A stretch of DNA of 40,716 nt from a virus (taxonomy: Duplodnaviria > Caudoviricetes): positions 1 to 40,716 of the IMG/VR virus record IMGVR_UViG_3300037692_000441; one strand, 5' to 3'. The notes below the pieces were generated by a model. That model worked only from the letters and a program-made list of their open reading frames with translations. It searched no databases and had not been told where the DNA came from. Positions 14,971 through 32,284 of this stretch are shown here, piece after piece. The translations under genes and the position numbers were made by a program. Each line of letters starts with the position of its first letter. Within the stretch, counting starts at the first letter, position 1.

Positions 14971-15016
14971 ATTCGTAATCAGCAGGTCGTCGGTTCAATC
15001 CCGACCGCCGGCTCCA
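14971..15016 (+). other. attP core = 3' half of a tRNA-Thr(CGT) gene
   Basis: ATTCGTAATCAGCAGGTCGTCGGTTCAATCCCGACCGCCGGCTCCA contains a CGT anticodon loop, T-arm GGTTCAATCC and a CCA end; there is no 5' half. Confidence 0.88.
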
Positions 15017-15515: not shown

Positions 15516-15601
15516 TATGCCACCCTCGGAGGAGATCCCCGGAGGAGACGCACAAGGCGATCCCCTCCGGGGTGGAAATGAGGCAGTTCGAGACCGGACA
15601 G

Positions 15602-15889: not shown

Positions 15890-15890
15890 C

Positions 15891-16073
15891 TTACACCTCC
15901 GGGAGTTTGGTCGGGTCGAGTGTGGCGAACTCCTCCCGGACTTTCGTCAGCGCGGCTTCCAGTTGCTCCGGCGATGCCCCCGCCTCCGCCGCCAGGCGTT
16001 TCAGGTTCGCTTCCACGATCAGAAACTTCACGATCTCTCCCGCGAGCGGGACGAGCAGTTCGAGCACGGGCAT
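15891..16073 (-). CDS. Small hypothetical protein coupled to the lipoprotein gene
   Basis: MPVLELLVPLAGEIV...; overlaps the lipoprotein stop; GGAGG SD. Confidence 0.6.
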   Translation of the reverse strand: MPVLELLVPLAGEIVKFLIVEANLKRLAAEAGASPEQLEAALTKVREEFATLDPTKLPEV

Positions 16074-16447
16074 CACGCACCTCCCGCTGTTGCGACCAGT
16101 TGGTTGATGACGTTGTTGATCTCCTGTTCCCTGCCGGGAGCCGGGATCCCGCCGCCGGCGAGGATGGCGTCGAACGCCGCGATCATCGGCTTCAGCTTGA
16201 TGAGGAGCTCCCGCTTCACCCGGTAGACACGCAACTGCTCGAGCGAGAGCTTCCCCTGCTGCGCCATCGCACCCATCGCGGCGGCGTCCTCGAACTGCGC
16301 CTTGTAGGCCGACATGAAGTAGATCGACTTTTCCTTTGCGATCTGGGAGGCGGTCTTCGCGGGAGCGGTCGGTGCCGTCCCCACGGTGGCGCACCCGGCG
16401 ACGAGGACGAGAAGCAGGACGAGCAGGATGCTGCGCTTGCGGTTCAT
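16073..16447 (-). CDS. Lipoprotein (possible spanin-like lysis component)
   Basis: Basic N-terminus, hydrophobic core, lipobox LVAG-C; helical body. Confidence 0.7.
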   Translation of the reverse strand: MNRKRSILLVLLLVLVAGCATVGTAPTAPAKTASQIAKEKSIYFMSAYKAQFEDAAAMGAMAQQGKLSLEQLRVYRVKRELLIKLKPMIAAFDAILAGGGIPAPGREQEINNVINQLVATAGGA

Positions 16448-16495: not shown

Positions 16496-16852
16496 TCAGC
16501 GGACCCCGATGCCTGCGGGGTTTTTCGGATAGCCCGCGGGGGATGTCCACGAAAAAGGGGGCGAGTAGATGCTTTCCGCCCCCCTTGCCGTACGCGCCTT
16601 CATTCGGAGGGTGTGCAATACACCATGTCCATAGGGCTTCGGGATCGGAATGAACGTGTTCGTCGTCGAAGAGAGCGTTACCCCGTCCCACTCCGCGACG
16701 TAGGACACCGGCAGGTCCGCCGCCTCAATCGCCGTGTTGTCCGTGTACTGCGTCACTGGGATCCAGAACATCTCGCAATCGTTCGGGCACGCCGCCATCG
16801 CCGCCCCCGCGATCAACATCATTCCGAGAAGCAGGACGATCACCTTTTTCAT
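16496..16852 (-). CDS. Secreted beta-sandwich (Fn3-like) protein
   Basis: Signal peptide MKK...AMA; W.PVTQYTD...Y...ARTARGAES.YS pattern. Confidence 0.6.
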   Translation of the reverse strand: MKKVIVLLLGMMLIAGAAMAACPNDCEMFWIPVTQYTDNTAIEAADLPVSYVAEWDGVTLSSTTNTFIPIPKPYGHGVLHTLRMKARTARGAESIYSPPFSWTSPAGYPKNPAGIGVR

Positions 16853-16865
16853 CTTCCATCTCCTT

Positions 16866-17381
16866 TCAGGCCTTGAAATGTTCGAGCCGCGCCAGGACCT
16901 CCTTGGCGTACTCCGGGTTGTGACCGACCCCGCCCGGGCCGCCGTTGAAGGCCTCCAGCGCCGGGAACGGCTCCTTGTATCTTTTGAGGTACTTCGCCAG
17001 GTGCCGGCAGCCGTACTCCAACCCCACGGGGGGATCGCAGAGCTGCGAGAGGAACCGGCCCAGGAAGCCGTGTTCCCGAGCGACGGCGCCCATCACCTGC
17101 ATCGGCCCCCAGGACGCCTGCTGCCCCCACCACTCCGCGTCCCGCGGCACGCCCTTGTAGGCGAAGAAATCCGCCGGCGGGATCTCGGAGGCCTGCTCCG
17201 CGGGCGTGAGCTTCCGGAAGGGCCTGGACCTCAGGACGTCCCACAGGTAGCGGTACTTCGGCTCCGGGTTCCACGCCCAGGTGTCGAAGGTCGACTCCTG
17301 CTCGACGATCGCAAGGACGATCGGCCGGGGAACCGCAAAACGGTCGGCAAACGAGATGATCAGGTCGGGTTGCAGGCCCAT
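16866..17381 (-). CDS. Endolysin, SLT-type lytic transglycosylase
   Basis: AIVEQES catalytic Glu, SWGPMQVM and AFNGG motifs. Confidence 0.88.
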   Translation of the reverse strand: MGLQPDLIISFADRFAVPRPIVLAIVEQESTFDTWAWNPEPKYRYLWDVLRSRPFRKLTPAEQASEIPPADFFAYKGVPRDAEWWGQQASWGPMQVMGAVAREHGFLGRFLSQLCDPPVGLEYGCRHLAKYLKRYKEPFPALEAFNGGPGGVGHNPEYAKEVLARLEHFKA

Positions 17382-17395
17382 CGTTCCTCCAAATG

Positions 17396-17416
17396 AAAAC
17401 GGCCCCGAAGGGCCGT
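17396..17416 (-). terminator. Intrinsic terminator (ACGGCCC-TTCG-GGGCCGT-TTT)
   Basis: GC stem, UUCG loop and U tract after the tailspike gene. Confidence 0.75.
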
Positions 17417-17440
17417 AGGTTGAATTTGTACCCGATTACC

Positions 17441-19207
17441 TCAGTTGGTCAGTTGGGAGACTCTTGAATTGTAAGTATTATCCCCGCTGTTGGCCAACAG
17501 AACCTGGAGCGTCACGTTATCCGCCACGCTGTACGTTCTGGCAGGAGGCGATCCCACGGCATTATAGGTGTGCAATACCGACGCCGCCCCATAGGCAAAA
17601 GCCACCACGTCAATGAACCTCCCCGTCTTGGCGTCGTTCCATGCGCTTACTAAAACGAGGCCACCCCCGACCTCTCCGGCCCCCTGACTGTTTTCCAGAA
17701 GGGAGGCAATCGTGTTCTGGGTCGTATTATCCCCGATCAGGCCATTCGTTACTGACGCTCCCTTTAACTGATGCGTTGAATAATAGGAACTCGTCCCTTT
17801 TGATCCAACTTTTCTAAGATTCATCCCGACAGACGAATACATATCGCGCTGATAAGTGTCGTTCCCGCGATAATTAACAGTACTGTCGTCTCCACCACTA
17901 TTTCCAACCCATTCAATGTCATAATTGCTTTGCGGGGTGGGATTTGACACGGTGACAAACGTCGGATGCCCTGCCGTTATAGCGGAGAAAGTATTCCTGT
18001 ACACTTTTAATCTCCACACATTTTCATATTTAATATGACCGCCTCCATGATCAGCCCCAACGAAAGTAGTATCAGACACAAGGAAGTTCGCGAGTGGATC
18101 TCCCGGCAACCCCAACAGGGCAATATCGAAATCCGTGGCATTGTTGTCTGTCATATTGTTTTCAAAATGACAACCGACTACCCTGATTAAACTTAACGCT
18201 ATTGGAGATTGACTACCCGCAGAAACATACAATCCAGAACCTTGGTTGGACTCAAATACGGTATTGTTTACAAATTCTATTCCTGTACCCTGCCGAATAT
18301 ACGCACCGTGCTTTATTGCGACCCTGAACCTGCAATTCGAGAACGTAGTGGACGTAACAAATGTGTTGCTTATTTCCCCCATGTACAAATTATAGTAATT
18401 GGCATCAAAAGTGCAGTTATTAAACTTACTACTGACCATTGCCTCGAGCCTTAATCCATAAGAATCCGTATTGTCGAAATGTGATACGCGAACATAATCC
18501 ACGTTTAAAGAGGAGTACTCTCCGTTAGATCCAATGTACAGTCCACCCACGGGCGATCCCGCTGTAGTGGTAAGCCGGAAATTCCTTAATATCATCCCCT
18601 CGCCCTGAGAGGTGTTCACTCTTGGATTGACAGCTAAGGCAACGTTATCTCCCTGGTAGTCAAGGATGGTTCGCCAGCCTTCACCTTCGAAAATCCCCAA
18701 ACTCGAATAACGCAAACCCGCGCCGTTATATGCATAAGTTCCTATGGAAAAATGGATTGTTCCGTCGATCTCTAAAGCAGCATCAAAGGCCACCTGGATC
18801 GCCGTGGCGTTCGTAGCCGCCGCGCCGCCTCGTAAAGCACCCCACCATTCGGGATACATTTTCCCGACTTGCCCTCCGGCGAAGGAAACCGTGCCAGCCC
18901 CACTGAATGCCTGATACAGGCCAGCATTAAACGGTCCCTTTATCGTCAGCACCTTCCCCGACGACAGCACGAATCCTCCGCCGTTTTTCATGTCCAGGTG
19001 GACGTTCGCCGGAACCGTCGTGTTGTCGGTGACGCCGAGCGAAGTCGTGACGACCAGCGTCCTGCTCGAGGCCCCGATCTGCGTGAGGGCTTGCGAGAGA
19101 GTCTGGAAAGAGGCGGAACTGAGCGGCGCGAACCAGATTTGGTAGACCAGCAGGGCACAGATAGCGGTAAACGCCCCGAAAATCGAGAACAGTTTTTTGT
19201 TTTTCAT
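17441..19207 (-). CDS. Right-handed beta-helix tailspike/depolymerase-like protein with N-terminal signal/anchor sequence
   Basis: YPEWWGA...AIQVAFDA...GTY...GEG pectate-lyase-type start and parallel beta-helix repeats. MKNKK + hydrophobic stretch + SSA. Most of the gene has lower GC. GAGGTG SD before ATG 19207. Confidence 0.8.
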   Translation of the reverse strand: MKNKKLFSIFGAFTAICALLVYQIWFAPLSSASFQTLSQALTQIGASSRTLVVTTSLGVTDNTTVPANVHLDMKNGGGFVLSSGKVLTIKGPFNAGLYQAFSGAGTVSFAGGQVGKMYPEWWGALRGGAAATNATAIQVAFDAALEIDGTIHFSIGTYAYNGAGLRYSSLGIFEGEGWRTILDYQGDNVALAVNPRVNTSQGEGMILRNFRLTTTAGSPVGGLYIGSNGEYSSLNVDYVRVSHFDNTDSYGLRLEAMVSSKFNNCTFDANYYNLYMGEISNTFVTSTTFSNCRFRVAIKHGAYIRQGTGIEFVNNTVFESNQGSGLYVSAGSQSPIALSLIRVVGCHFENNMTDNNATDFDIALLGLPGDPLANFLVSDTTFVGADHGGGHIKYENVWRLKVYRNTFSAITAGHPTFVTVSNPTPQSNYDIEWVGNSGGDDSTVNYRGNDTYQRDMYSSVGMNLRKVGSKGTSSYYSTHQLKGASVTNGLIGDNTTQNTIASLLENSQGAGEVGGGLVLVSAWNDAKTGRFIDVVAFAYGAASVLHTYNAVGSPPARTYSVADNVTLQVLLANSGDNTYNSRVSQLTN

Positions 19208-19215
19208 ATCACACC

Positions 19216-19815
19216 TCACAGAGTGATCTGGCCGAACGCTGCCCACTGGCCAGGCGTTCCGGCATCAACACAGGCCCACCCGACCGGCCCCCCGATCTCG
19301 GGGGCGGTATTGAATCTTATGAATCCAAGCGCCCATGTCCCATCACTCGGAGGTCCTGTCCCCGTGTCGAACGGCATGGCGGCGCCGAGCGCCAAGGACG
19401 CGACCGCCTCGATTCCGGAGCCGTCCGCCTTGATCCGGAGGTAGTAGCCGGCAGGCGACAATGGGATCGTCAACCCAGGGAACTCCTGAAGAATCAGCGT
19501 GAGCTTGTCGGCCATTGCCTCGAGGGTTTCTTCATAGAACTGCTGCCCCGCGTTGAGATCGACCGCCTGGGTGCGCGCCGTTTCTCTTCGAAGCATGATC
19601 GTATTCCCCGCCGTGCGGCCCGAAACGAACGTCACGTTTCCACCGCCATCGCTCCCCGCGCCCGACACCGTGTAGTCGACGCCCAAGGCCAGCAACGTCC
19701 CATCGTCGTAAACCCGGAGATCCGCCGCAGCCAGGATCCGGAATGGGTACGGGAACACCGTCTGCAGTGCGGAGGCGATATAGACCTTGTAGAAAACGAG
19801 GGTCGAGACGGTCAT
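19216..19815 (-). CDS. Short tail-fibre adaptor (T7 gp17-like N-terminal anchor + GTPGxW C-terminal module)
   Basis: FPYPFRI....DLRVY...DYTV.G.G...GG.VTF...RRET...DKLTLILQE anchor; C-terminal PPSDGTW...GWACVDAGTPGQW. Confidence 0.8.
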   Translation of the reverse strand: MTVSTLVFYKVYIASALQTVFPYPFRILAAADLRVYDDGTLLALGVDYTVSGAGSDGGGNVTFVSGRTAGNTIMLRRETARTQAVDLNAGQQFYEETLEAMADKLTLILQEFPGLTIPLSPAGYYLRIKADGSGIEAVASLALGAAMPFDTGTGPPSDGTWALGFIRFNTAPEIGGPVGWACVDAGTPGQWAAFGQITL

Positions 19816-19824
19816 GGCCTGCTC

Positions 19825-21012
19825 CTATCGGGTGATATTCTGCATTTCCGCGTCGGTGAAGGCGCGGTTCCAGATGCGGAGGTCTTTGATGTGGCCGAAC
19901 AGATAGGCATGAGTGCTTCCGCCGACCTGGACGGATGCCTCAAAAGCAAAATCCCCGTTAAACGTTTTGCCGGACTGGACCGCCCCATCCAACGCCAGGG
20001 CCGCACCGACATCATCGGTATACGCGATGGCTGCTCTGTAGGTGGTTCCGTTCGCCATAGTCACACCTTCAAAATATTGCCCGTTGGCCCCCTCTCGATA
20101 GCGGAGCCTCTTCGAGCCGTCGTGGATGCAAAACGAGTTAAAGTCCGCCGGGTTGCCGACAAGGGTTATTTCATCCAGCGGCGGGAATCCGTTCGGGGTG
20201 ACGACAAGGGAAATAGATCCAAGAGTGCTCGATAGGTTCCCCGCCGTGGAGAACGTTAATATGTCGTCGTTCCTCGTCACCGCACCCGTAACAGTGGGGA
20301 TGTGGGAGGAGGGGAAGGCCCCCGCCTCCATCTGTCCGCCCCAAGCGTACACGTTGTCGCCACTCGTCACGATCCGGACGCCGGGGGTGTACGCCGCCAC
20401 GGTGAGGGTCGCCGTAACAGCGCATCGCGTCCACGTCGAAGCGTTGATCGCACAGGTCGCCCATGTCGTGCTGTCGGCGCGAACGTCCACGTCGCCGGTG
20501 CCGTCTTTCCTCTTCAGGTATACGGAGAAGGTGTACGGAACTGCGGTCCCCGTGACAGTTTGCAGAAGCGTGGAGTTGGCGTCAGTCGCCTCCAACAAGT
20601 CGGCGGTCGAGTTCCCGTCCGGCGCGACGGCATTGTCGTCGACGATCGTGATGGTCGTGGGTGCCCAGGTGGTCTTGAAGACCTCGCTTTGGAGCGCGAT
20701 ATTCGTCCTCGCCCCCTCGATCAGCGCCCCTTGGGTCTCGATGCGCAGTTGGTTCGCAGAGGCAACCGTCACCAGCCCCGTCCCCGGGTGGACGTACGTC
20801 GCCGTGTGCGTGGCGTCGTGCGCGCGGGTGAAGGTGAAGGCGCCGGTGCCGCGGAGAAGGCGCAGGGGAGACCTCGGGTCATCAAAGGGAGCCCAAAACT
20901 TGAGGTCGTAGTGCCACCACGGCGTGGCCTGATGGACCGGAGGCCCGGCCGCCGCCGGGACAGCCAGCAGGAACGCCGCCAGCAGGAGGAGGATGACGCC
21001 TGCGCGTCTCAT
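19825..21012 (-). CDS. Head-spike/fibre-like protein with LamG/concanavalin-like C-terminus and signal peptide
   Basis: FTRA..ATY...GALIEGARTN...WGGQMEAGAFPSSHIPT...TRNDD fibre motifs; GHIKDLRIWNRAFTDAEM LamG-type end; MRR-hydrophobic-AAA signal. Confidence 0.72.
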   Translation of the reverse strand: MRRAGVILLLLAAFLLAVPAAAGPPVHQATPWWHYDLKFWAPFDDPRSPLRLLRGTGAFTFTRAHDATHTATYVHPGTGLVTVASANQLRIETQGALIEGARTNIALQSEVFKTTWAPTTITIVDDNAVAPDGNSTADLLEATDANSTLLQTVTGTAVPYTFSVYLKRKDGTGDVDVRADSTTWATCAINASTWTRCAVTATLTVAAYTPGVRIVTSGDNVYAWGGQMEAGAFPSSHIPTVTGAVTRNDDILTFSTAGNLSSTLGSISLVVTPNGFPPLDEITLVGNPADFNSFCIHDGSKRLRYREGANGQYFEGVTMANGTTYRAAIAYTDDVGAALALDGAVQSGKTFNGDFAFEASVQVGGSTHAYLFGHIKDLRIWNRAFTDAEMQNITR

Positions 21013-21338
21013 CACCGGGTCTCCAGCACCTTGAACGTCCGGTCGGCGCTCTGGTTCGCCGAGGAGACGAACCGCATCGGCAGCCCGCCGAAGCAGGAGA
21101 GGCTGTCGATCCACATCGTAAACCCGCCGGTGGTCGCTGCGATCGACCAGGCCGAGCCGTCAGGCCGGTACAGCGGAACCCAGTTCGTGCCGTCGTCGAA
21201 ACTCATCTGGAGGGTCAGGCTCGTCACGTCGAGCGTCGGCACGACGATGCCGATAAGGTTCCTCCCCTCCGTCAGCCGGTGCTTCGCGGAATTGTTGTCG
21301 TCGGTGGCGATCGTGATCACGACGTCGGAGACTCGCAT
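21012..21338 (-). CDS. Small beta-rich virion (spike-base-like) protein; paralog of 30449-30874
   Basis: PT...LTLQMSFDDGT...QSADRTF; AGGAGG SD. Confidence 0.6.
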   Translation of the reverse strand: MRVSDVVITIATDDNNSAKHRLTEGRNLIGIVVPTLDVTSLTLQMSFDDGTNWVPLYRPDGSAWSIAATTGGFTMWIDSLSCFGGLPMRFVSSANQSADRTFKVLETR

Positions 21339-21363
21339 GGTGCCCTCCTTGTGGGCGGAAATG

Positions 21364-21383
21364 AAAAAGCCCCTCGAGGGGGC
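21364..21383 (-). terminator. Intrinsic terminator after the ejection-protein genes
   Basis: GCCCCCTCGAGGGGC followed by TTTTT. Confidence 0.7.
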
Positions 21384-21413
21384 CTGCGTGATGCGATCAA
21401 TGCGCGGGCGCGG

Positions 21414-24400
21414 CTACTGCCCGATGTTCAACCCCTTGAGCAGGGCGTCGGACGGGGGCGCCGCCTTCCCTGTCTGTCCCGTCTCTCCGAACTGCTCCTT
21501 GCTCTTCTCCTTGCCCGCCCGGACCTTCTGGAGTCGGTCGCTGTTCTCCGCCACCCACTGCTGCGCGAGCGCGCGGTACTGGTAGATCACCTTCTTCACG
21601 TACGCCTGCTTCGTCCCCATCGGCGCGTTCGGATCTTCGGGAAGCTCCTTGTACTCCGGCGCCTTCATCGCCGCCTTGAGGAAATCGTATGCGCCGACGT
21701 TGCCGAACTCCCCGTCCTCTTTCAGCCCATTTCCGGCGAGCTTCACCAGGAGCGTGTACTCCTTCGGCTTGAGCTCCACGCCATGCCAGGGGGAATCCTT
21801 CTCTCCAACTCCGAACAGCCCGGAGCCGCCCGGCGGCCGCCCCATGACGAACCGGGAGGGCATCGAGACCGCCATCCCGAGCCGGTTCATCTCGTCGAGT
21901 ACGGGGTCCTTCTTCGCCTCGGAGACGCGCATCGGGGAGGCGATGTCCGGTCCCAGGCGCCCCGGGCGGAGCTGCTCGCGACCGAAGATGTCGAGTCGCG
22001 CCTCCAGCTTGTCGGAGAGCCCCGGGATCCGGGCCATGATCGCGTCGACCGAGCCCCGTACATAGCGGATCTTCGGATCGACGTACGCCTGATTCGTCTG
22101 GTTTACGAGGGCCGGTACGATGGATCCGGCGAGCTGGCTGATCACCCTTCCGCCGGCACGGTCCGGATCGTTGATCGCCTCCATCCACGATCCGACCCCG
22201 GCGAGGTACGATTTCATCGAGAAGACCTGGTATCCGGCCAACGCCGAGGCCACCGCCAGGTCCTCGATGTCCTTCCCTTCCACCTCGCCCTGGTTGAACT
22301 CGTTGATGAGCGCGATGTCCGCGGCGATCCCCATGAGGGTCCCGATCGGCTCTAACCGCGACATGTCGTAATATTTCCCGCCGATGTTCAGGGAGTACGG
22401 CTGCCATCCGTCCTGGAACCAGAGCTGCCGCTGCGACCGGTTCTTCGGGCCGGAGCCGGTCATCAAGCCCGCCTGCGAGAGCACGGCCGCTGCACCCATG
22501 ATGAGAGAGCCGTTGACGAGCTTCGCCGTGGCGAGCTGCCCCGTGGCCCCGCCCCGGGCGATGTCCGCACGGACGTTCTCGGAGAGCAGCCCGAGCGGCG
22601 TACGCTCCCCAACGAACTTCATGATGTTCGTGGGCGTCCGGAAGAAGGGCAGGAAGACCTTGATCATCGGATGCGAGTTCAGGAACCGCTGCGCGGCCTG
22701 TCCCGTAGCCCCCAGCTCCTTCGTGAAGGTGGCGTAATCGGCGAACTCCGAGGCGGAGAGAACCATTTCCTCGGTGGGGCTGTCAACGAGCTCCGCAACG
22801 CGATCGCCGAACGACTTCCCGCGCAGCCCTTCCGTCGACGCCTTCCGGTACGCCTGCGCGTGGAGTTCCATCCGCTGCGCCATCCCCTTAAACAGGGCAT
22901 CCTCCGCGCCGAGGAACACCCCCGGGAGGCGGATTGCGTTCCCGAGGAAGTCCACGCCGGTTCCCAATGGGCCGGAGAGGCCGAGATTCTCCGCTGTGAT
23001 CGCCTTCCTCATCGGCTGCTGGTTCTTCGTCAGGAGGTACTCGTACTTGTCGCTGGCGAACTGGCTCTGGCCTTCCCGCAGCGTCTTCGCCGCCAGGCGG
23101 AGGCCGTCCACAATGCCCAGCACCGAGCCTTGGAGCATCGCCCCTGCCTCGCCCAGAGCCACCCCGGGTTCCTTTCCCCACGCCGGGAGGAAGGAGGCCA
23201 TCTGCCGCTCCTCGATCAGGACGGCGGCCACGGCCAGGTTGCCGGTCATGTTCGCGGCGTGGGTCTGAGGGCCAGACAGAAGCCCGTTGATCCACGCCTC
23301 GAGGAACATCTGCGGTTTCGTCGCCCGCTGCAGGGAACGCGCGAAGACCGCGAGCTGCTCGGGGGTCTCCAGCCCGAGGATCGCCTCGTTGATCGTGGCG
23401 TCGTCGACGCCCTTCTTCTTCAGCCGGGCGAGGTTCTCCGCGAACTTCGACAGCCCGGCCGCCTGGTAGTCGCCGACCTCGGTCATGATGCGGTGGGAGC
23501 CCAAGCCCCGCGCGATCGCGGCGGTGGTCGACTCCTTCTTCTCCTGGATCCGGGCGGCCAGCGCGAGCGCTGCGTCCCGGGTGCCGATGGCCTCCGCGTC
23601 CCCTTCAGACACCTTCTTCGCCTGGTCGAGGACGAACTGGCCGACCGCCCCGTGGAGCAGCCGAGTTCGGGTGATGTCCACGTCCGTCATCGGCTTGTTG
23701 TCCGGGTGACGGAGCAACTCCGGGACGGTCATCGGGTTCGCCTTCGCCTCCTCGTAGACCTTCTCCAACGTGCGGGGAGCGCCGATCGTCTCCTCGATCC
23801 GCTTCCCGTAGAGCGCGTCGACGCCGGCCATGACCTGCTTGACCGTGTCGGGGATCTCCAGCCGGTCGTAATTGATCCGCCCGGGCTTCCCCTCGATGTC
23901 GAGAGACCCGCTGGAGATGGCCGACTCGAGCTTCCCCCACTCGGCGGGCTTCACGTCGCGCTTACCTGGGATTTCAATCGAACCCCGCTCGTTCACGAGC
24001 TGCTCGGGGAGGCGCGCGCGGAGGTTCTCCGTGTACGCGGAGAGCCCTTCCTTGATCCCGAGTGCATCCACCGATCCCTTGACCAGCTTCCCCTCCTTCA
24101 CCCCCGCGTGGATCGCCTTCCCGACGCCCATCATAGCCGCCAGCCCGGCCGCCTTCGCCAAGAGGGGATCGCCGGTCTTTTCCTTCACGTACTCTTCCGC
24201 AGTCTGCGCCGCCCAGGTGAAGGGAATGAACGGGATCCCGAGTGCCTGCTCCCACTGCTGGGAGTCTTCCGTGGGGGCGCCGGCGGCCGCTGTCTTCACG
24301 GTCTCGAAGGTCTGGTCGATATGCTGCTGGAGCTCCTCCTGCACAGCGGGATCCGTGTTTCCCTCGTTCCCTCCGGAGGCCGAGACTCCCTCCATCGACA

Positions 24401-24716
24401 CATCACGTCCAGCGGAGGCCGCGGCGAGCTCTCCAGCCGCCCGGGCCGGAAAGCCGAACAGCTCGATTGCCGACCGCACTGCTCCCTTGATCATGTCGGG
24501 GACGGCCTGCTCGTTCCCGGCCTCTCCGGCGATGTTCCCGGCGGGCTTGGCTCCCTTCACGCCGCGGACGTCCACGGCAGCGGAGGGCTTCCCGGGCGTG
24601 AGGTACGGATTCGGCGCCTGATCGGCCGCCGTGATCATCTGCGGAGAATCCCCGTTGACGCCCTGGGTGTACTCGCTCTTCCAGCGGTCCAGGTACTGCG
24701 CGGAGAGGTCGCTCAT
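21414..24716 (-). CDS. Large internal virion/ejection protein (gp16-like)
   Basis: 1100 aa, helical; NGLLSGPQTH..N, PFFRTPTNI and GWQPYS motifs; last of three genes after tail tube B. Confidence 0.75.
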   Translation of the reverse strand: MSDLSAQYLDRWKSEYTQGVNGDSPQMITAADQAPNPYLTPGKPSAAVDVRGVKGAKPAGNIAGEAGNEQAVPDMIKGAVRSAIELFGFPARAAGELAAASAGRDVSMEGVSASGGNEGNTDPAVQEELQQHIDQTFETVKTAAAGAPTEDSQQWEQALGIPFIPFTWAAQTAEEYVKEKTGDPLLAKAAGLAAMMGVGKAIHAGVKEGKLVKGSVDALGIKEGLSAYTENLRARLPEQLVNERGSIEIPGKRDVKPAEWGKLESAISSGSLDIEGKPGRINYDRLEIPDTVKQVMAGVDALYGKRIEETIGAPRTLEKVYEEAKANPMTVPELLRHPDNKPMTDVDITRTRLLHGAVGQFVLDQAKKVSEGDAEAIGTRDAALALAARIQEKKESTTAAIARGLGSHRIMTEVGDYQAAGLSKFAENLARLKKKGVDDATINEAILGLETPEQLAVFARSLQRATKPQMFLEAWINGLLSGPQTHAANMTGNLAVAAVLIEERQMASFLPAWGKEPGVALGEAGAMLQGSVLGIVDGLRLAAKTLREGQSQFASDKYEYLLTKNQQPMRKAITAENLGLSGPLGTGVDFLGNAIRLPGVFLGAEDALFKGMAQRMELHAQAYRKASTEGLRGKSFGDRVAELVDSPTEEMVLSASEFADYATFTKELGATGQAAQRFLNSHPMIKVFLPFFRTPTNIMKFVGERTPLGLLSENVRADIARGGATGQLATAKLVNGSLIMGAAAVLSQAGLMTGSGPKNRSQRQLWFQDGWQPYSLNIGGKYYDMSRLEPIGTLMGIAADIALINEFNQGEVEGKDIEDLAVASALAGYQVFSMKSYLAGVGSWMEAINDPDRAGGRVISQLAGSIVPALVNQTNQAYVDPKIRYVRGSVDAIMARIPGLSDKLEARLDIFGREQLRPGRLGPDIASPMRVSEAKKDPVLDEMNRLGMAVSMPSRFVMGRPPGGSGLFGVGEKDSPWHGVELKPKEYTLLVKLAGNGLKEDGEFGNVGAYDFLKAAMKAPEYKELPEDPNAPMGTKQAYVKKVIYQYRALAQQWVAENSDRLQKVRAGKEKSKEQFGETGQTGKAAPPSDALLKGLNIGQ

Positions 24717-26083
24717 TTGCCCGCCTCATTGAGCAGCTTTTTCAAGTCTTCCGTTCCTGTCCCCTGTGGGTTCCTCACCGTCTTCCACCGGTTGGAGATG
24801 TCGGAAGCAATCTCGAACCACTTCTCGGGGGTCTTCTTGACGCGGGAGATGTACTCCTGCTCATCGGCGATCAGCTTCACGCGGATCTTGTCGGTCATGG
24901 TGTTCATGAACCCGCGGGGTACCGCCGTCCGGATGATCTCCATTCCCGTCGCCGCCCCCGGGGGCAGCTTCTGGAGGTCGTCGACTCGCGCGCGCTTGTA
25001 CTCGAGGATGTCGAGGACATCTGCGGGGTTGAGGCCCTTCTCTCCGAGAGAGGTGATCTCCTTGTCGGAATACCGGCCAGGGTTGAGGTTGATCTCCATC
25101 TTGTACGTGTTCACGATCGCAGGATTCCGGGGACCGCCTTCCCGTGATCGCGCAGCCACCTTGAGCCTCCCTTCCTTGTATCCAGCCGGGGAGATGATCG
25201 GGGTGAAGTTCGGGTCCCGCGTGGGGCCGAGGAAGGCATCGTCCAGCTGAGCGCCCGTGACGGCCCCGGCGTCGATGCCTGCAAGGAAGACGGCATCGTT
25301 TTTCTCCTGTGATTTCTTCACCTGGTGTTCCGCAACCCGCTCGTTGTGCTCCATCTGGCGGATGGCCGCCTGGTCCAGCAGGTCGACCTTTCCGATGCCG
25401 ATCCCGGCGTACGCCCCGGCCTGCTTCTTCTGGTAGTAGATGGCGGGGTTGTTCAGGATGTCCCGCTTCGCGAACCCCACCTGGACGCCCTCGAGGAAAT
25501 CGTTCTCGCTCTTGGCGCCCTCCTCCGCGGAGATGATGCCGCCCGTTACGGCAGACCGGATCGTGCCGATGCCGAGTCCGATCAGCGCGGAGGGGTCGTC
25601 CACCTTGGCCGCGCCCTCCATGGCCCCGGTGACCACGTTGGTCAGGTTCGCCTTCGAGGAGTCCACGAACAACTGGCGCTGGCGCTGCCGGGCGTGCAGG
25701 TAGCCGCTTGCCTCGATGTCCGCAAGTTGCGACGTCACCGACTTCTTGACAACGGGGTCGTTGATCCCGTCGAGGGTCTCCTGCTTGATCTTCCCGAACC
25801 CCTTGAGCCAGTTCCCTTCGTGCGTCTGCCAGTCCGGCTTTTCCTCGAGGGCGGCGTTCAGGTCGGTCACACGCTTGTGGGTGTCCAGCGTCAGCGCGGA
25901 GACATCCTGCACGCGCTGGAGTTCGTCCGCCTGAGCGCGGAACACCTGGTCGTAATCCATCGCCTCCTTGGCGAGGATCCCGAGCCCGCGAGCGGCGTCT
26001 CCGCCGAAATCCTCCGGGGTAGCCCTAGGGATGCCCGAGGAGGAGGGAGCGTCGAGCTGGGAGATGTATTCGCCGAGTTCCAT
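24713..26083 (-). CDS. Internal virion/ejection protein (gp15-like)
   Basis: Synteny and helical composition. Confidence 0.65.
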   Translation of the reverse strand: MELGEYISQLDAPSSSGIPRATPEDFGGDAARGLGILAKEAMDYDQVFRAQADELQRVQDVSALTLDTHKRVTDLNAALEEKPDWQTHEGNWLKGFGKIKQETLDGINDPVVKKSVTSQLADIEASGYLHARQRQRQLFVDSSKANLTNVVTGAMEGAAKVDDPSALIGLGIGTIRSAVTGGIISAEEGAKSENDFLEGVQVGFAKRDILNNPAIYYQKKQAGAYAGIGIGKVDLLDQAAIRQMEHNERVAEHQVKKSQEKNDAVFLAGIDAGAVTGAQLDDAFLGPTRDPNFTPIISPAGYKEGRLKVAARSREGGPRNPAIVNTYKMEINLNPGRYSDKEITSLGEKGLNPADVLDILEYKRARVDDLQKLPPGAATGMEIIRTAVPRGFMNTMTDKIRVKLIADEQEYISRVKKTPEKWFEIASDISNRWKTVRNPQGTGTEDLKKLLNEAGK

Positions 26084-26084
26084 C

Positions 26085-26561
26085 TCAGTCCCACCCGTAG
26101 ATTTTCAGTTCATCGTCCGTGAACCGCGGCTCGGACGGCCCCTTGTACCCCATCCCCGACTGCTTCGCGTAGTCGACGCCCAGGGCGCCGAGCTTGAAGA
26201 TGCCTTCCGTGAGCGCCCCCTGCTCCTTCGCCGCCCCCCCGCGGATCCTCGCCTGCGCCGTGTTCACGTTCCGCGCCGTGGTGAGCCGGGAGATGACCAG
26301 GTCCCGCTCCGCCTGCCCGGCGGCGTGCATGAGGACCTCGATGGGGCTTCCCGTAATCTCCACTCCGGAGGCTCCCGCCCGGGCGCGCATCGAAGAAAGT
26401 ACCCGGTCCCGCTTCTCGGAGATGCCCTTCTCACGGAACGATCCCGATACCAGGGCGCTCGTCATGTCCGCGCTGCCCGCGTCGATCTCCGCCTTTCCGG
26501 CTGCCCTGCCGGACTGCATCCCGAGCAGGGTCGCTCCGCCTGAGAGAAGGTAAGGCCACAT
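26085..26561 (-). CDS. Small internal virion protein (gp14-like)
   Basis: Gly/Ala-rich; RARAGASGVEITGSP motif; synteny. Confidence 0.7.
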   Translation of the reverse strand: MWPYLLSGGATLLGMQSGRAAGKAEIDAGSADMTSALVSGSFREKGISEKRDRVLSSMRARAGASGVEITGSPIEVLMHAAGQAERDLVISRLTTARNVNTAQARIRGGAAKEQGALTEGIFKLGALGVDYAKQSGMGYKGPSEPRFTDDELKIYGWD

Positions 26562-26564
26562 GGT

Positions 26565-28979
26565 CTACGCCCCCACGTCGAGATCCCCGCCCACGCACAG
26601 GATCGTCGCGGGAAGAGGGTTCTTCTGCTTGATCACGATGTCGGCCTCGGTGTCGATGCCGAGGTTCGATACCTGGATGTCTCCGGTATATGGATCCGGC
26701 GGAGACCCCAGCGGAGCCGCTCCGGTCCGGAACGGCAGCTCGTCGCCGTTCACCTCGAGGCTGCTGGTGTCAAGTAGCCGAAGGAAGATCTTCACCCAAT
26801 GCTTCAGCTTCCCGATCGTGTTGATCTTGTCGGTGGAGAACTCCTGCCGGTTCGGGATGAGTTCCGATTCGTACGGCAGCCCCACCACGACCAGAGAGGC
26901 GGCCGTGTCGAGCGTGATCTGTCCGCCGGCGACCACTTTCCCCTTGACCACGAACCCGTCCGCCAAGGCGTCGACGGTCTTTCCCTCGAGGTGCGTCAGC
27001 CCCGGGATCGTCACCGTGGCCACGCCGTCGTAGAGGATGAAGCTGTCGACGTTCGGGCGGTCCGGGTCCAGCCGCTCGATGTACCGCTTCGTGGCGCCGC
27101 CGATCGTGCGCTTAACCGCCAGCCACAGCTCATCCCGATTGTTTACCGGGTCCGGAATAACGCAGGGACTCTCCGCGCCCCCGTCGGTGTCGTGCTGATG
27201 CCAGGCGAGGACCTTCTCTTCCCGGTTGTAGGTCAGACCCAGCCACACACCGTCCGCCCGCACGGGCCAGAGGATCGATTCCGGCTCCTGCTGGTACGCC
27301 ATCTCCACGATCCCGCCCTCGGTCAGGTGATCGGCCAGCGTCGTCAGGTCGCCGGCGAGGAAGGAGTCAGAGTCGAAGGCGTACCCGATCTCCCGGATCT
27401 TGCGCCCGGCCCGCTGCACAAACAGGAGCTTGTGACCAATCCGCACGGGGGAGACATCGGCGGAGCCGTGCGTCGTCTCGTTCTTGACGTCCACGTTCGA
27501 AGGTGTTAGCGGAGAATCGCCACCACCGATGACTCGGAATTCGCTGCCGGCCGTGCCCACCAGGAGCGCCTTCGTCGGCAGCATCCAGCGCATTTCGTTG
27601 ACCTGGTTCGCCGCGATCCGGTACTCAAGCGCGTCTCCGTCGTACGGGCCGATCCCCATGTTCTCGTAATCCCCGCTCTGGCTTCCCCAGATCGTGGTGG
27701 GGAACAGCTCCGTCCCTCCCGCCATGAACCGCTGCTCGTAGAAGCAGATCGCGGACGGATAGCCGTTGGCCGCGGACCACGCCTCCGACTCGCACGTCCA
27801 GGAGCCGGGCGCCGCCGCGACGATGGGGGAGACGACCATCGGGACGAGAATTCGGGCGGAAACGACCGTGGCGGACGTGTAGGCCGTGATCTTGGCGACT
27901 CCCGAGAACATCCGGACGTACTTCCCGACATCAGAGGAGCGCCAGCCGTTCTTCGCCAGCGTCAGCGTGGCGATCGCATTGGCCGGCGAGATGAGGGACG
28001 GCGTATTGTCCGCCTGCGGGGATCCGGTCAGCAGCCACGTCCCGGCGGTCATCGGTGAACACTTCTTCCAGGTCGTGCCCGGCGCCTGCTGCGCTCCGAA
28101 CGAGGCGTCGATCGTGCATATCGCAGGATCCGCATCCAGCACCGTCACGCGCCGCACCGTCCCGGCCTGCGCTCCGCTGGTGACGTGGACGTAGTCGCCC
28201 ACCGCGAGACCGTGAACCTCGGAGTTCGTGATCACCGTCCCGCCGACGTCTGTCTGAAGCGTCCCGGGACCATCCACGACGAGCGAGGCCGCGAAGTCGT
28301 TCAAGACGTCAACGGTGACTTCCTTCCGGGAGGTGTACGCGGTGATCGACGCCAGTCCTGCCACGCGCTTTATTCCACGCCCGGCATCACCCTCGTAGAA
28401 GATATCCGCGGAGGCGTACACCTTGATTCCCTGCCCGGTGACCGCGCCAATCCCGATCGTGATCGTGCCGCCCGATGGATCCATGTCCGCTTCGTAGGTC
28501 GGAGGAGGAAGGAAGGAGATCGTGGAGAGCTGCCAACTTGTACCGTCGGCGAGAAGGCGCTGGAGCTTCCGGATCGGATGATCCCGATGGGCAATGTAGA
28601 GCACATCTGCGGACTGCGTGAACCGCAAGGACCGCAACTGCGCCTCGGTATAGGTCGTGGTCACTTCTACCGAGGTCCCGACCGGGGATTCGATCCGCGC
28701 GCCGTTCTGGTAGATCCGGATGTAGTTTTCCCCGAATTCGAGGACGTACGCCTGCTCGACCCCGTACTCGAAGGGGACCAGGCGGACGCGCTTGCTGCTG
28801 TCTTTCACCTCGGCGACGAACCGCAAGCCCCCGCGGCGGTAAGCGGGCCCCTGGGGATGCGCGATGAAGTTCCTCATCGTCCGGCAGCCGTTCTTGAATT
28901 TCTCGTAGTCGAACCGGCCGCCCAGGTGCGGGGCGAGCTCCCCCGCGTTGAACGAGGATTGGATGGGGAAGATCGGCAT
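26565..28979 (-). CDS. Tail tubular protein B / nozzle (T7 gp12-like)
   Basis: QSSFNAGEL.P...N....QG.AYRRGG, TQSADVLY, YPSAICFYEQR, FVQRAGRK and AWHQH motifs. Confidence 0.88.
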   Translation of the reverse strand: MPIFPIQSSFNAGELAPHLGGRFDYEKFKNGCRTMRNFIAHPQGPAYRRGGLRFVAEVKDSSKRVRLVPFEYGVEQAYVLEFGENYIRIYQNGARIESPVGTSVEVTTTYTEAQLRSLRFTQSADVLYIAHRDHPIRKLQRLLADGTSWQLSTISFLPPPTYEADMDPSGGTITIGIGAVTGQGIKVYASADIFYEGDAGRGIKRVAGLASITAYTSRKEVTVDVLNDFAASLVVDGPGTLQTDVGGTVITNSEVHGLAVGDYVHVTSGAQAGTVRRVTVLDADPAICTIDASFGAQQAPGTTWKKCSPMTAGTWLLTGSPQADNTPSLISPANAIATLTLAKNGWRSSDVGKYVRMFSGVAKITAYTSATVVSARILVPMVVSPIVAAAPGSWTCESEAWSAANGYPSAICFYEQRFMAGGTELFPTTIWGSQSGDYENMGIGPYDGDALEYRIAANQVNEMRWMLPTKALLVGTAGSEFRVIGGGDSPLTPSNVDVKNETTHGSADVSPVRIGHKLLFVQRAGRKIREIGYAFDSDSFLAGDLTTLADHLTEGGIVEMAYQQEPESILWPVRADGVWLGLTYNREEKVLAWHQHDTDGGAESPCVIPDPVNNRDELWLAVKRTIGGATKRYIERLDPDRPNVDSFILYDGVATVTIPGLTHLEGKTVDALADGFVVKGKVVAGGQITLDTAASLVVVGLPYESELIPNRQEFSTDKINTIGKLKHWVKIFLRLLDTSSLEVNGDELPFRTGAAPLGSPPDPYTGDIQVSNLGIDTEADIVIKQKNPLPATILCVGGDLDVGA

Positions 28980-29848
28980 CAGGCGGTCCTTTTCCACATA
29001 TAGACGACAATGTACGGTTGTAAATTGTTATGAGCCCCCCCGCCGCCGGCCGCTCCGGTGTTCAGCCCCGCCGCCTGCGATCCGCTGGCATTTGAATCAA
29101 TCCCTAATTTCAACGCACCTCCGCTGGCGCTTGCCGGGGCATTTTCCGCATGCGCGTGCGAAGGGATCTCGGCCTCGGTCAGCGTGTGAGTCTTCTCTCC
29201 GCCGGTTTCCTCTGCGGTGTCGAAATCGGCATCCCCCGCGTCCCGTCCCACGAGGACCCTGCCGGCGCCGAACGCGACCCACGTTCCGAGTCCCAGGAGC
29301 GTCGCGGGGTTCATGGCGACGACGGAGAGGAACACCGAGCCGATCGGCCACGCCCCTGAAACGTCCCCCGGAGGCCCCTGTTCCCCCTGTGGTCCCTGGA
29401 TCCCCTGGATCCCCTGATCTCCCTGCGGCCCCTGGGCGCCATCATTTCCAGCCGGACCCTGCGGACCGGGAACGGTGCTGTCCGCTCCGGCAGGACCCTG
29501 AAGTCCTTGGTCGCCCTGCGGACCTTGCGGCCCGGGAACCGTGGAATCGGCGCCCGGAGGACCCTGAGCCCCATCCGCACCAACAGGACCCTGTGCCCCA
29601 TCGTTTCCTGGTAGCCCCTGAGCACCATCGGCCCCGGGAGCGCCATCCGCTCCGGGAGGTCCTTGAGACCCAGCAGACCCGGCAGGTCCTTCCGGTCCCT
29701 GGGGACCCGGTACGGTCGATGCGGCGCCAGCGGGGCCTTCCGGCCCGGAGGGACCGTCCAGTCCTTGCGATCCGGGCTCGCCTTGAGGTCCTTGCGGGCC
29801 GATGTAGAGCTTCGCCGCCTCCCTCTGGAGTCCCGCCGGTGTGCCCAT
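28979..29848 (-). CDS. Collagen-like fibre protein with C-terminal phage tip/collar-type domain
   Basis: Long Gly-X-Y tract; WPIGSVF...NP......GTW...GRVLVG...GGEKTH...[17 protein letters not shown]. Confidence 0.85.
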
Positions 29849-30409
29849 CTACGCCCTCACGTCCGTGAATGTCGTGCACTCGGCAACTTCGGGGCTGCCC
29901 TCCTGGCCGTCGGAGGCCAGCGCGGACAGGATCTTCCCCTGGTACGCCGCCCACGCGGCGGAGACGACCTTCTCCTTCTTCGTGATCGGCATGGAGAGCT
30001 CGGCCGTCATCCGGGCGACCAGGGCGGTGCACAACCCGGCGGAATACTTGCCCGTGGCCGTCACGCGTACGGCGTACAGGACCTTCGCCGTGCTGTTGTC
30101 GCACAACAGAAGGCCGTCCTCGACCGCGAACGCCTCGTCGGGATCCTCCATCTCGAAGATCCGCAGGCAGCCGGTCGGAAGCGCGTACGCATACGACCAT
30201 CCGAACGCCGGGGCGGCCGCTTCGCGCGCCAGCGTGGCCCGCTTCTTCGCGCAGTTCCAGCGGTGCGCGGCGAGCTCATCATCCAGGACCATCGGCCAGA
30301 TCACCTTACAGATCCGCGCGCGGTCGTTGGCGTCGTCCAGACTGTTTATCGGATCGGCGCCGAGCAGCATGAGCGCCGCCGAGCAGATTTCCGTTTCGGA
30401 AGAATACAT
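29849..30409 (-). CDS. Tail tubular protein A / adaptor (T7 gp11-like)
   Basis: EICSAAL..LGA..I.SL...HRWNCA.KR..L...FGWSYAYALP..CLRI motifs. Confidence 0.85.
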   Translation of the reverse strand: MYSSETEICSAALMLLGADPINSLDDANDRARICKVIWPMVLDDELAAHRWNCAKKRATLAREAAAPAFGWSYAYALPTGCLRIFEMEDPDEAFAVEDGLLLCDNSTAKVLYAVRVTATGKYSAGLCTALVARMTAELSMPITKKEKVVSAAWAAYQGKILSALASDGQEGSPEVAECTTFTDVRA

Positions 30410-30448
30410 GGGTCCTCCGGTGAGGGGGCCTTTCGGCCCCCCCTCGGG

Positions 30449-30874
30449 TTAGTGAGGCGCCTTGGTCCCGTAGAAGGTGAAGGTTCGATCCGCGGCCTGG
30501 GCGGTGCCTGCGACAACCCGAACGTATCGCCACGCAGCGAAGTTCCCCGGGAACTCGACCACCTTGGCCGCCGTCCCCGCGGCGGAAATAGCCGCGATCA
30601 CGTTCGTTCCGTTGTTGTAGGCCATGTGGGTGTAATAGGTCGTCCCGTCCGCGCTCACTTCCACGGCGATCGTTGAAGAAGTGATCGTCGGACAGGCCAC
30701 GGAGAGAGACGTGATCCCCCTGGGCAACCGGATCCCGGCCGAATGTGTGTTGTCGGTCACTACCCCGCCGGTCATCAGCGAGGCCTGGACCATGTCCGGC
30801 TCGCCCGCCTGGGCGATTCCGGTGAAGCATGCCAGGGCGGCGAAAGCGAGAAGCACCACCATGAATTTCCGCAT
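30449..30874 (-). CDS. Spike-base-like virion-type protein with Sec signal peptide
   Basis: MRK-hydrophobic-AQA signal; EVSADGTTY...WRYVRVV.GTAQAADRTF; AGGAGG SD. Confidence 0.7.
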   Translation of the reverse strand: MRKFMVVLLAFAALACFTGIAQAGEPDMVQASLMTGGVVTDNTHSAGIRLPRGITSLSVACPTITSSTIAVEVSADGTTYYTHMAYNNGTNVIAAISAAGTAAKVVEFPGNFAAWRYVRVVAGTAQAADRTFTFYGTKAPH

Positions 30875-30889
30875 GAGATTCCTCCTTGG

Positions 30890-30919
30890 AAAAGGGAAGG
30901 GCCGCCCGAAGGCGGCCCC
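30890..30919 (-). terminator. Terminator-like hairpin after the capsid/cement genes
   Basis: GGGCCGCC-TTCG-GGCGGCCC followed by TTCCCTTTT. Confidence 0.65.
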
Positions 30920-30927: not shown

Positions 30928-31359
30928 CTACATGATGTAGTCGATGTACCCGTAGTACGTGCCGGTGGCCACGATCACATCGCCGATCACGAGCGCCGCG
31001 ATCCGCCGGTCCGCGGTCAACACGGTACCGAAGTTCAGGGCCACCGTGTTATTGAGCGCGGTGTGGTTCAGGGACGCACAGTCGAGGCCGTCCGCCAGCT
31101 CGTCGCCGCCGTCCCACCCGATGTCCAGCGTCACGCCGGCGCCGGAGAACGTCTCGTCGTTGCCCCACACGCCGCCCAAGAGCCGCGCGCCCTTGGGCAG
31201 GTCGCACAGATCGATGAGCGTTCCCACCGCCAGCCCGAGAGCCGCGTCGACGGTTCCGGAGAAATACTTCCTCCGGAGGACGCCGTCGGTGTTCCCGGAG
31301 TTCGGGACCGCCGGGACCGCGTCCTGATTCAGAACCTGATCGCTTTTCTGGTCCGCCAT
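30928..31359 (-). CDS. Capsid cement/decoration protein
   Basis: Directly after MCP; LPKGARLL...TLDIG beta-rich pattern. Confidence 0.65.
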   Translation of the reverse strand: MADQKSDQVLNQDAVPAVPNSGNTDGVLRRKYFSGTVDAALGLAVGTLIDLCDLPKGARLLGGVWGNDETFSGAGVTLDIGWDGGDELADGLDCASLNHTALNNTVALNFGTVLTADRRIAALVIGDVIVATGTYYGYIDYIM

Positions 31360-31414: not shown

Positions 31415-32284
31415 TTACTCCACGCAGTCGATCGCCAGGACCTTGCCGTCCTCGATCCGGGCCGCGCCCAGGTCGATCGAGATGGAGATCTGGTCGATGT
31501 TAGAGAGGTCGGGCCGCTTGTTGATCTGGACTTCCATTCCCTGCCCGAGCTGGAACCCCATGCCGCTCTTCACCCACGCGACGTTCCGGCGGGTGCCGGC
31601 GATCGCGCCGACGGCCAGACGCTCGGTCGGGATCCAGTTGAACCCGCAGAAGTAGACCACGCGGCCGTCCTGCAGAGCCTTCTGGTTGTAGTCGTTGTTC
31701 ACGACCTCGTCGATGTTCATGAGGTCCTCGAACTGCTCCGACCCGTACGCCCAGAAGAGCTTCTCGGTGGGGTCGACCATGTTGGCCATGAACTGCTTCT
31801 TGGCCGTGATGATCTTGTCCTTCGTGAGGCCGGTGCCGCCGGAAGCGATGAGGGCGGTCCCTCCGGCGTTGAACGCGACTTCCGTGGAACCGGTCTCGTC
31901 CTCCCAGGCGCTCCCGGTCATCGCGGCGATGATCACGTCGTCGATGGTCCGGTTGCAGGCCATGATGCCGTTCTGCTGGTAGGACGACCGGGGGTCGGAG
32001 CCGATCCGGTGGACGTCGATCGGATCGACCGGCATGTGGACGTCGTAGAAGTCCATCGTCGCCGAGCGCCGGTTGTGGATCTGGTCGGTGAGAACGGTGG
32101 GCTGGTTGCGGACGGTGCGCTTCCGCATCGAGGTCGCGGCGAGCAGGTCGAAGAACGCCCGCTTTCCGTTGAGCTTGCCGTCGTCGCGGACGGCCTCGCG
32201 GAGCAGGCTCCTCTGCTGCTGGAGGGCCAGCAGGACCCCTTCACGGTACGTCTGCCGCTGCCAAAGGGTGATTTCGTTCGCCAT
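31415..32284 (-). CDS. Major capsid protein
   Basis: LLALQQQRSLLR, R.IDDVII.A, FCGFNWI..ERL and GAARIEDGKV motifs; AAGGAGG SD before ATG 32284. Confidence 0.88.
   Translation of the reverse strand: MANEITLWQRQTYREGVLLALQQQRSLLREAVRDDGKLNGKRAFFDLLAATSMRKRTVRNQPTVLTDQIHNRRSATMDFYDVHMPVDPIDVHRIGSDPRSSYQQNGIMACNRTIDDVIIAAMTGSAWEDETGSTEVAFNAGGTALIASGGTGLTKDKIITAKKQFMANMVDPTEKLFWAYGSEQFEDLMNIDEVVNNDYNQKALQDGRVVYFCGFNWIPTERLAVGAIAGTRRNVAWVKSGMGFQLGQGMEVQINKRPDLSNIDQISISIDLGAARIEDGKVLAIDCVE

Follow-up and report, generated by a model that had tools for sequence, protein, structure and literature searches.

Sec-type leaders on head-spike, tailspike and lysis-cassette proteins of a temperate podovirus-type phage: a possible periplasmic stage in appendage assembly

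We report on four minus-strand genes in the late operon of the virus record IMGVR_UViG_3300037692_000441 (IMG/VR; Caudoviricetes), analysed over its full 40,716 nucleotides (the window). They encode A, a 141-residue jelly-roll protein resembling a spike base (30449-30874); B, a 395-residue head-spike fibre (19825-21012); C, a 588-residue beta-helix, tailspike-like protein (17441-19207); and D, a 118-residue Fn3/Ig-like protein (16496-16852). Tailed-phage particles are held to be assembled wholly in the cytoplasm, and each of these proteins begins with an apparent Sec-type leader. We believe that the outer parts among them are very probably exported, and that later docking of at least one of them on the particle is probable.

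Leaders in the window and in related phages

The leaders occupy 30806-30874 in A (predicted cleavage after Ala23), 20947-21012 in B, 19112-19207 in C and 16793-16852 in D. They were called with our own heuristic, which looks for a basic n-region, then an uncharged core of ten residues, then small residues at -3/-1, with a cut-off for mean core hydropathy of at least 2.4 (2.2 in the Asp-Asn family, host-secreted, fibre-column and alternative-start counts below). All three elements are present, the cores averaging 2.99 in A, 3.41 in B, 2.63 in C and 3.18 in D, and the coordinates and N-termini given in the original prediction are correct. By this heuristic the leaders are of the Sec/SPI (signal peptidase I) type. 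That of C, 32 residues long, is the weakest of the four and could be a signal anchor. Export through Tat or as lipoproteins was considered and rejected: among 107 leader-bearing homologs the Tat consensus occurs once and a lipobox never.

It had been conceded that the leaders would be spurious if the true starts lay downstream; the leader starts are upheld for all four genes. A ribosome-binding site stands at the leader start of A, C and D, and the start of B overlaps the stop of the preceding gene (TGATG). Alternative starts were sought behind the leaders: none lies in frame within the first 60 codons of B or C, and the downstream ATGs of A and D have no clear ribosome-binding site and are not kept in homologs.

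When 44 open reading frames (ORFs) of the window were put through the leader test (two control entries, cI and a 60-residue gene, being mis-framed and four others started a few codons off), A, B, C, D and one lipoprotein (16073-16447) passed. The hydrophobic segments of the holin-like gene and of the gene at 4984-5415 lie later. The absence of leaders from core particle proteins, also anticipated, holds for the portal, or head-tail connector (33856-35559), the major capsid protein (31415-32284), the adaptor (29849-30409), the nozzle (26565-28979) and three ejection-type proteins (21414-26561), all on the minus strand. Equally leaderless on that strand are a cement/decoration-like protein (30928-31359; a weak match, E 0.0097) and a collagen-repeat fibre with a Gp10_C tip (28979-29848), a fibre that stays in the cytoplasm.

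The leaders recur in homologs of all four proteins in related phages. For A, a leader is found in 11 of 11 database homologs and in 18 of 18 loci (one located via its capsid gene, the others via mature-region patterns). Mean identity among homologs is 37% in the leader vs 60% in the mature part, so by sequence comparison the leaders keep their shape while their sequence varies. A profile of the mature part of A alone collects 771 relatives; of the best 150, 31 carry a leader, and 22 of these rank among the top 30. On a quick tree of 119 columns, 27 of the 32 leader-bearing rows form one group amid leaderless rows, with seven changes required and at least two forced. B homologs carry the leader in 48 of 66 cases at E<1e-30 vs 1 of 26 beyond that limit; eight of the misses look like fragments or mis-called starts. 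In a FastTree tree built without 8 of the 93 rows, whose starts were truncated or mis-called, seven true leaderless fibres nest within a leader-bearing B clade of 57 rows, so that the same protein occurs in both forms. The leader is present in 27 of 47 homologs of C and in all four loci of D, three of them near-identical.

Homologs of the core virion genes in related loci have a leader in 0 of 75 cases. Apart from A, A2 (the paralog of A described below) and B, leader-bearing genes number 23 of 386 in close loci vs 17 of 806 in distant loci (P 0.0009), as counted with a gene caller that read one strand and included some spurious ORFs; small proteins of lysis type make up most of the distant cases. 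Further leader-bearing genes occur between the head and tail genes of relatives that have other head modules.

The leader-bearing proteins and their leaderless neighbours

The head-fibre/LamG body foreseen for B is borne out. B matches the NCBIfam model NF048003 (GTA_spike_fiber; E 5e-30, 105 bits, cut-off 36) and the RcGTA fibre Rcc01080 (6tb9_F3; E 6.5e-8), and its GTA_spike_fiber domain is situated inside the LamG domain; by these matches it is confirmed as a true homolog of head-spike fibres. It contains Cys187 and Cys197, and Asp-Asn pairs at 126 and 219. In RcGTA, according to the part of the cryo-EM report available to us, one fibre docks via residues 2-10 on a jelly-roll base pentamer at the capsid vertices (PMC7296036). 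The RcGTA head spike (Rcc01079 pentamer plus Rcc01080, PDB 6TB9) resembles the arrangement here in that B is homologous to Rcc01080 and lies behind a small gene, A2, whose paralog A folds as a jelly roll. It differs in that here B and one base-like paralog (A) carry Sec-type leaders, and B has an added LamG domain and no Leu-Gly docking repeat. A signal peptide goes unmentioned in the available part of PMC7296036, and the word "signal" has 0 matches in that of PMC10218006.

Five fibre homologs (P0031, P0034, P0026, P0054, P0073) have Phe-Pro-x repeats directly past the predicted cleavage site; by analogy with the Leu-Gly repeat of RcGTA, these are candidates for a five-fold docking peptide. 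A sister-phage head fibre (P0042, L025:10001-11908) has an extra polysaccharide-deacetylase domain, and so has, in the accessible portion of its description, the turret head of the archaeal virus HFTV1 (PMC12494034).

A2 (21012-21338, minus strand) is a leaderless 108-residue paralog of A (26% identity, E 4e-11) directly upstream of B, its stop overlapping the start of B; the sister phage at L025 shows the same layout. We regard A2 as a candidate cytoplasmic socket for B. At L023, L026, L029, L030 and L031 the slot upstream of the fibre holds other small leader-bearing genes.

A itself, with an Asp-Asn pair at residue 41, is located between the cement-like and adaptor genes, and its model (pLDDT 79.8) is a beta-sandwich jelly roll. 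Its identification as a spike base stands as a suggestion, made by this modelled fold and by the position of its paralog next to the fibre. The best fold matches are tied at Z of about 8.3-8.9: YomS, XepA (8.8), discoidin domains and a capsid chain of phage 7-7-1 (8.3). Rcc01079 is not among the fold or profile matches listed; phrog matches are weak and occur in 3 of 59 relatives, and a profile search of A and A2 against PDB gave ubiquitin-repeat noise or nothing. Among solved structures, XepA of PBSX and YomS of SPbeta (PDB 6i56, 6i5o) come closest to A, at Z 8.8 and level with discoidin domains. XepA, a jelly-roll pentamer of phage origin, leaves the cytoplasm before lysis, as stated in the accessible part of PMC6834076, and is listed among non-classically secreted proteins in that of PMC1266369. 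It differs from A in belonging to the lysis cassette of a Gram-positive prophage, in its non-classical secretion and in its absence from particles; A has a classical leader.

For C, the proposal of a beta-helix depolymerase holds as far as the beta-helix goes (PF13229, E 1.5e-7, above cut-off); the depolymerase role stays putative, and a comparison with PDB sequences gave nothing significant. C contains seven Asp-Asn pairs. It has no N-terminal virion anchor of its own: its mature start aligns deep within anchor-bearing homologs. The gene just upstream encodes a leaderless tail adaptor of 199 residues (19216-19815, minus strand) that consists of a T7-type tail-fibre anchor (residues 1-112) and a small C-terminal domain, with no receptor-binding body. 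Anchor and spike body are thus in separate genes here, with the leader on the body only. Known P22- and T7-type tailspikes and fibres are leaderless and fold in the cytoplasm; C shares with them the beta-helix body, and the adjoining gene the T7-type anchor, and the difference is a separate body gene with a leader. In the tailspike homolog P0112 a leader stands directly before a T7-type anchor (phrog_1640, positions 2-133, E 6e-36), a domain whose established job is tail binding. P0124 and P0143 have a leader ahead of a phrog_26190 domain, which P0127 has without one. At L025 the tailspike slot is taken by a different leader-bearing protein, again behind a leaderless adaptor. Complex prediction for adaptor residues 105-199 (three copies) with C residues 33-210 (three copies) scored 0.03, 0.78 and 0.01 in three runs and weighs neither way.

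Tailspikes P0108, P0109, P0114, P0117, P0119 and P0127 end in the same small domain as the adaptor, and it is also present in a leader-bearing protein of 264 residues (L105:157-951). The GC content of the C gene is 0.50 vs about 0.63 in A and B, a sign that this gene may have been swapped in recently, yet already with its leader and seven Asp-Asn pairs.

D directly follows a leaderless SLT-family endolysin (16866-17381, minus strand), and its predicted Fn3-like body is supported by an Fn3/Ig-like match; it contains Cys22 and Cys26, and Asp-Asn at 38. In all three relative loci inspected it likewise comes behind the endolysin, inside the lysis cassette. Judged from its leader and position, D is likely exported and more likely a lysis-stage periplasmic accessory than a part of the particle. 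The cassette at 15243-16447 (minus strand) comprises the lipoprotein (16073-16447, lipobox Cys19), a 60-residue gene (15891-16073), the holin-like gene (15602-15889) and a 90-residue gene. By its position the lipoprotein is probably spanin-like; no classical spanin pair was recognised in the cassette by Pfam, PHROG or NCBIfam.

Phage, host and the Asp-Asn pair

The phage is complete, temperate and of podovirus type: the 40.7-kb window is its whole genome, a single contig whose terminal repeat spans 99 bases or more. Its integrase, portal, capsid, adaptor, nozzle and ejection-type genes were recognised via Pfam or PHROG; the top matches of the portal in cultured phages reach just 33-39% identity. 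The integrase gene (13888-14892, plus strand) adjoins a 43-nucleotide att core (14974-15016, plus strand), read from its sequence shape as the 3' half of tRNA-Thr(CGT); neither the window nor two att loci gave a tRNA call with ARAGORN. An exact match to this core occurs in 24 of 61 genomes from the family of bacterium UBA2219 (presumably Deferrimicrobiaceae) and, across a phylum sample, in 2 of 151 genomes, both belonging to that family. Since a UBA2219 genome also carries related prophage genes, the host is likely a member of this family. Several host-family genomes (G158:C6, G163, G137:C35) hold the core two to three times, 1.5-14 kb apart when the copies share one contig; integrative elements thus seem to stack preferentially at this tRNA end.

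Elsewhere in the genome, the large terminase appears as two ORFs, an ATPase-like and a nuclease-like half (window 35874-37525, minus strand; likewise L001:4724-6375). At L031:7703-9602 the two halves are separated by a small gene, and at L023 (2667-3587) and L031 a base-plus-fibre pair directly follows the second half. The plus strand holds a 645-residue C5 DNA-methyltransferase-like gene in which several internal repeats close with D-P-R (10978-12915; annotation read from sequence) and, adjoining the repressor, a 143-residue gene whose product has a hydrophobic stretch at its N-terminus and a single Asp-Asn (4984-5415), possibly a membrane-anchored exclusion protein. In the early region an HNH-like ORF (7807-8331, plus strand) and a GIY-YIG-like ORF (near 3059-3340, minus strand) were read from sequence. 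Three terminator-like hairpins on the minus strand, at 30898-30919 (after the cement-like gene, before A), 21367-21385 (before A2) and 17399-17416 (after C), may adjust how much of each appendage gene product the late operon yields.

The leader-bearing proteins are rich in the dipeptide Asp-Asn, a bias first spotted by eye and tested post hoc: the four window proteins have 11 such pairs vs 3.6 expected, and the other 39 ORFs have 8 vs about 16. Across the 23 families that bear leaders in close loci, which include A-D and a few genes of lysis type, Asp-Asn is the top dipeptide, with 57 vs 17.4 expected (z 9.5; the next dipeptide reaches 3.8); in 171 leaderless families the ratio is 0.76. A cause at the DNA level was rejected, with 85 in-frame occurrences vs 25 expected, 8 vs 7 out of frame and 9 vs 14 on the reverse strand. 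So was a general host sequon: the excess is mild among 108 proteins predicted to be secreted, taken from 1.2 Mb of sequence in two genomes of the family, where the pair ranks 31st of 396 dipeptides. The ratio there is 1.09 in G163 and 1.61 in G001 (inflated by two prophage genes) vs 0.68 in cytoplasmic proteins, and it is 1.00 in a smaller host set of 26 secreted proteins. Canonical N-glycosylation was likewise rejected as the reason for export, as N-x-S/T occurs 93 times vs 85 expected in 22 leader-bearing genes and STT3 turned up in none of 31 incomplete host-family genomes. The counts are 54 vs 33 in leader-bearing A and 104 vs 80 in leaderless A, and leader-bearing forms in the B and C families are no richer than leaderless ones.

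In sister phages, large leader-bearing genes inserted between the gene for the spike-base-like protein and that for the adaptor (L152:4561-6231, L179:2390-4135, L001:12501-14495) have high Asp-Asn counts too. The extremes among these inserts are 12 vs 1.4 and 10 vs 1.6 expected; the L001 gene, with CBM96 and Ig domains, has nine.

We presume, at little better than even confidence, that the pair reflects a structural turn or a calcium-binding habit of this gene pool and marks no modification site. The modelled pairs in A and B lie at loop/strand borders or strand ends, leaderless homologs are somewhat enriched too (1.6x in A, 1.5x in B; 20 of 59 leaderless A relatives have the pair), and C homologs are unenriched (1.09 with a leader vs 1.20 without), so that the enrichment is not general to leader-bearing tailspikes. 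The low ratios in host secreted proteins point the same way, as does the failure to find STT3. Against this, the enrichment is far stronger where the same folds carry a leader (A 6.3x, B 3.0x), the sites in 34 fibres are scattered over 39 alignment columns of B, and the same phage's leaderless outer proteins (cement, nozzle, adaptor, collagen fibre) show no enrichment. The flanks are biased as well: Thr is favoured before and after the pair, and Pro never follows it. These features would suit a periplasmic host enzyme decorating an Asp-Asn sequon (near T-D-N-[TVA]-[VAY]), for instance with a glycan, before the parts snap on at lysis; the Bacteroidetes O-glycosylation motif D-[ST]-[AILMVT] resembles the pattern. 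We consider this extension unlikely, a turn or calcium habit being the more likely of the two. If it were true, the virion surface would be host-imprinted and the motif would be a new bacterial modification motif.

Export and docking weighed against the alternatives

The reading that we favour, as moderately probable, is that of exported, periplasm-matured appendages docking at lysis on leaderless sockets. The outer sugar-binding parts (B, A and C) have Sec-type leaders, and the core particle proteins are leaderless. The former would be exported via Sec, cleaved by signal peptidase, and folded and modified in the periplasm, disulfides included. Two socket-like proteins, A2 and the 199-residue tail adaptor, would stay in the cytoplasm. 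When the inner membrane fails at lysis, the outer parts would attach to completed particles, with B docking on A2 or A, and C on the adaptor. Export and cleavage are very probable, given textbook leaders on four unrelated folds and the covariation of cysteines. That at least one of the two dockings takes place is probable: P0112 has a leader before an intact tail anchor, leaderless socket-like genes are retained next to those whose products are exported, and fibres change between leader-bearing and leaderless forms within their family. Disulfide formation and the timing at lysis we likewise infer. P22 tailspikes join finished heads in vitro, so late docking is feasible. The benefit of export is likely to be maturation chemistry found only in the periplasm; a second possibility is that sugar-binding or sugar-cutting parts are kept out of the cytoplasm.

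Several points weigh against this reading. The N-terminal (Leu-Gly)n docking peptide is absent from B both before and after the leader, and just about nine residues separate the cleavage site from the folded domain. The cysteine covariation that supports export (for Cys187/197, 20 fibres with both, 3 with one and 24 with neither among leader-bearing fibres vs 5, 11 and 17 among leaderless ones; for Cys150/211, 7, 0 and 43 among leader-bearing fibres) is uncorrected for kinship, and many leader-bearing A proteins have one cysteine only. No spike-base family model matched A or A2. Cultured phages offer no close homolog, the best matches of B being distant and A having none, and the leaderless collagen fibre could serve as the receptor binder of this phage. 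In the host family DsbB was found in 0 of 31 genomes, VKOR in 11 of 31 (mostly partial matches, one of full length), and STT3 in none of the 31 incomplete genomes, a search whose control matched only in archaea. Finally, XepA, which ties for the best fold match of A, is exported yet missing from mature particles, according to the portion of PMC6834076 at hand.

This last point leads to a possible, if doubtful, alternative: that the proteins are exported and never bound to particles, acting at lysis as soluble periplasmic or extracellular factors, with the tailspike loosening capsule and the fibres serving as receptor decoys or masks. The XepA/YomS likeness of A, the lack in C of the anchor present in its homologs, the place of D in the lysis cassette and the little space for a docking peptide in B all agree with it. 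A leader before an intact tail anchor, as in P0112, makes little sense for a free protein, however; leaderless socket-like genes stand beside exported genes both in the window and at L025, and the same clade also holds the nested leaderless fibres. Of the original idea of export followed by docking or by remodelling of the host surface, the export half is backed by leader conservation, the absence of Tat and lipobox signals and the covarying cysteines, and between docking and soluble action we favour docking.

That the leaders are uncleaved hydrophobic docking peptides or membrane anchors of proteins assembled in the cytoplasm seems to us very unlikely. Such a role would recall the RcGTA fibre, whose residues 2-10 (an Ile/Leu-Gly repeat) sit in hydrophobic pockets of the base pentamer, and it would fit the translational coupling of B to the leaderless A2 and the long leader of C as a potential anchor. 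It accounts poorly for an identical n-h-c architecture with a small -3/-1 site on four unrelated folds, the base-like protein included, and for B homologs (P0031, P0034) whose hydrophobic Phe-Pro-x repeats lie past the cleavage site. The covarying cysteines suit an oxidising compartment, and SecA or the signal recognition particle would, as a matter of general knowledge, catch such leaders regardless of their purpose. Still less probable are lysogenic-conversion morons, that is, lectins and glycanases expressed from the prophage and secreted, which would change the surface of the host cell or keep out superinfecting phages. The phage is temperate and the low GC content of C suggests recent acquisition; against this, the genes are co-oriented in the late operon, one of them with coupled translation, and the strand that encodes A, B and C has nothing promoter-like upstream of any of the three. 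Moreover, leader-bearing A proteins fall mostly in one clade (27 of 32) of a mainly leaderless family that is viral per Atlas, which argues against borrowed host secreted proteins.

Coat proteins of filamentous phages and spikes of archaeal pleolipoviruses use host Sec signals. Sec-exported endolysins are a further case, described in the accessible part of PMC6834076. These systems concern membrane assembly or a lysis enzyme and not appendages of cytoplasm-built tailed particles. Closer is gp49 of Burkholderia phage Bcep781 (GenBank AF543311), annotated "possible tail fiber; possible signal peptide domain", whose translation in our own reading starts with a Sec-type leader. It is likewise a leader-bearing fibre of a tailed phage, in this case a cultured one, and differs in being a single annotated gene of an unrelated phage. 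We found no paper testing its export or particle incorporation, and the GenBank note is the sole public precedent that we found. A full-text literature search, with thin coverage of subscription papers, returned no description of Sec-exported tailed-phage appendages or of an Asp-Asn sequon; the available part of the Tunturi phage paper contains no mention of signal peptides and no virion proteomics. What would be new is the proposed export route; the folds and families of the parts were already known.

If export and docking are true, a second compartment and a lysis-time assembly step would be added to phage morphogenesis, and it would be explained how receptor-binding parts gain disulfides or other periplasmic modifications. 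Late-operon genes with signal peptides, now often annotated as morons or membrane proteins, would need re-annotation. The route is directly testable, as a cultured phage with a leader-bearing fibre exists in Bcep781. The Asp-Asn bias singles out a specific peptide for study by mass spectrometry, and it may be a lead to a pathway of protein modification, so far unknown, in a family of uncultured bacteria.

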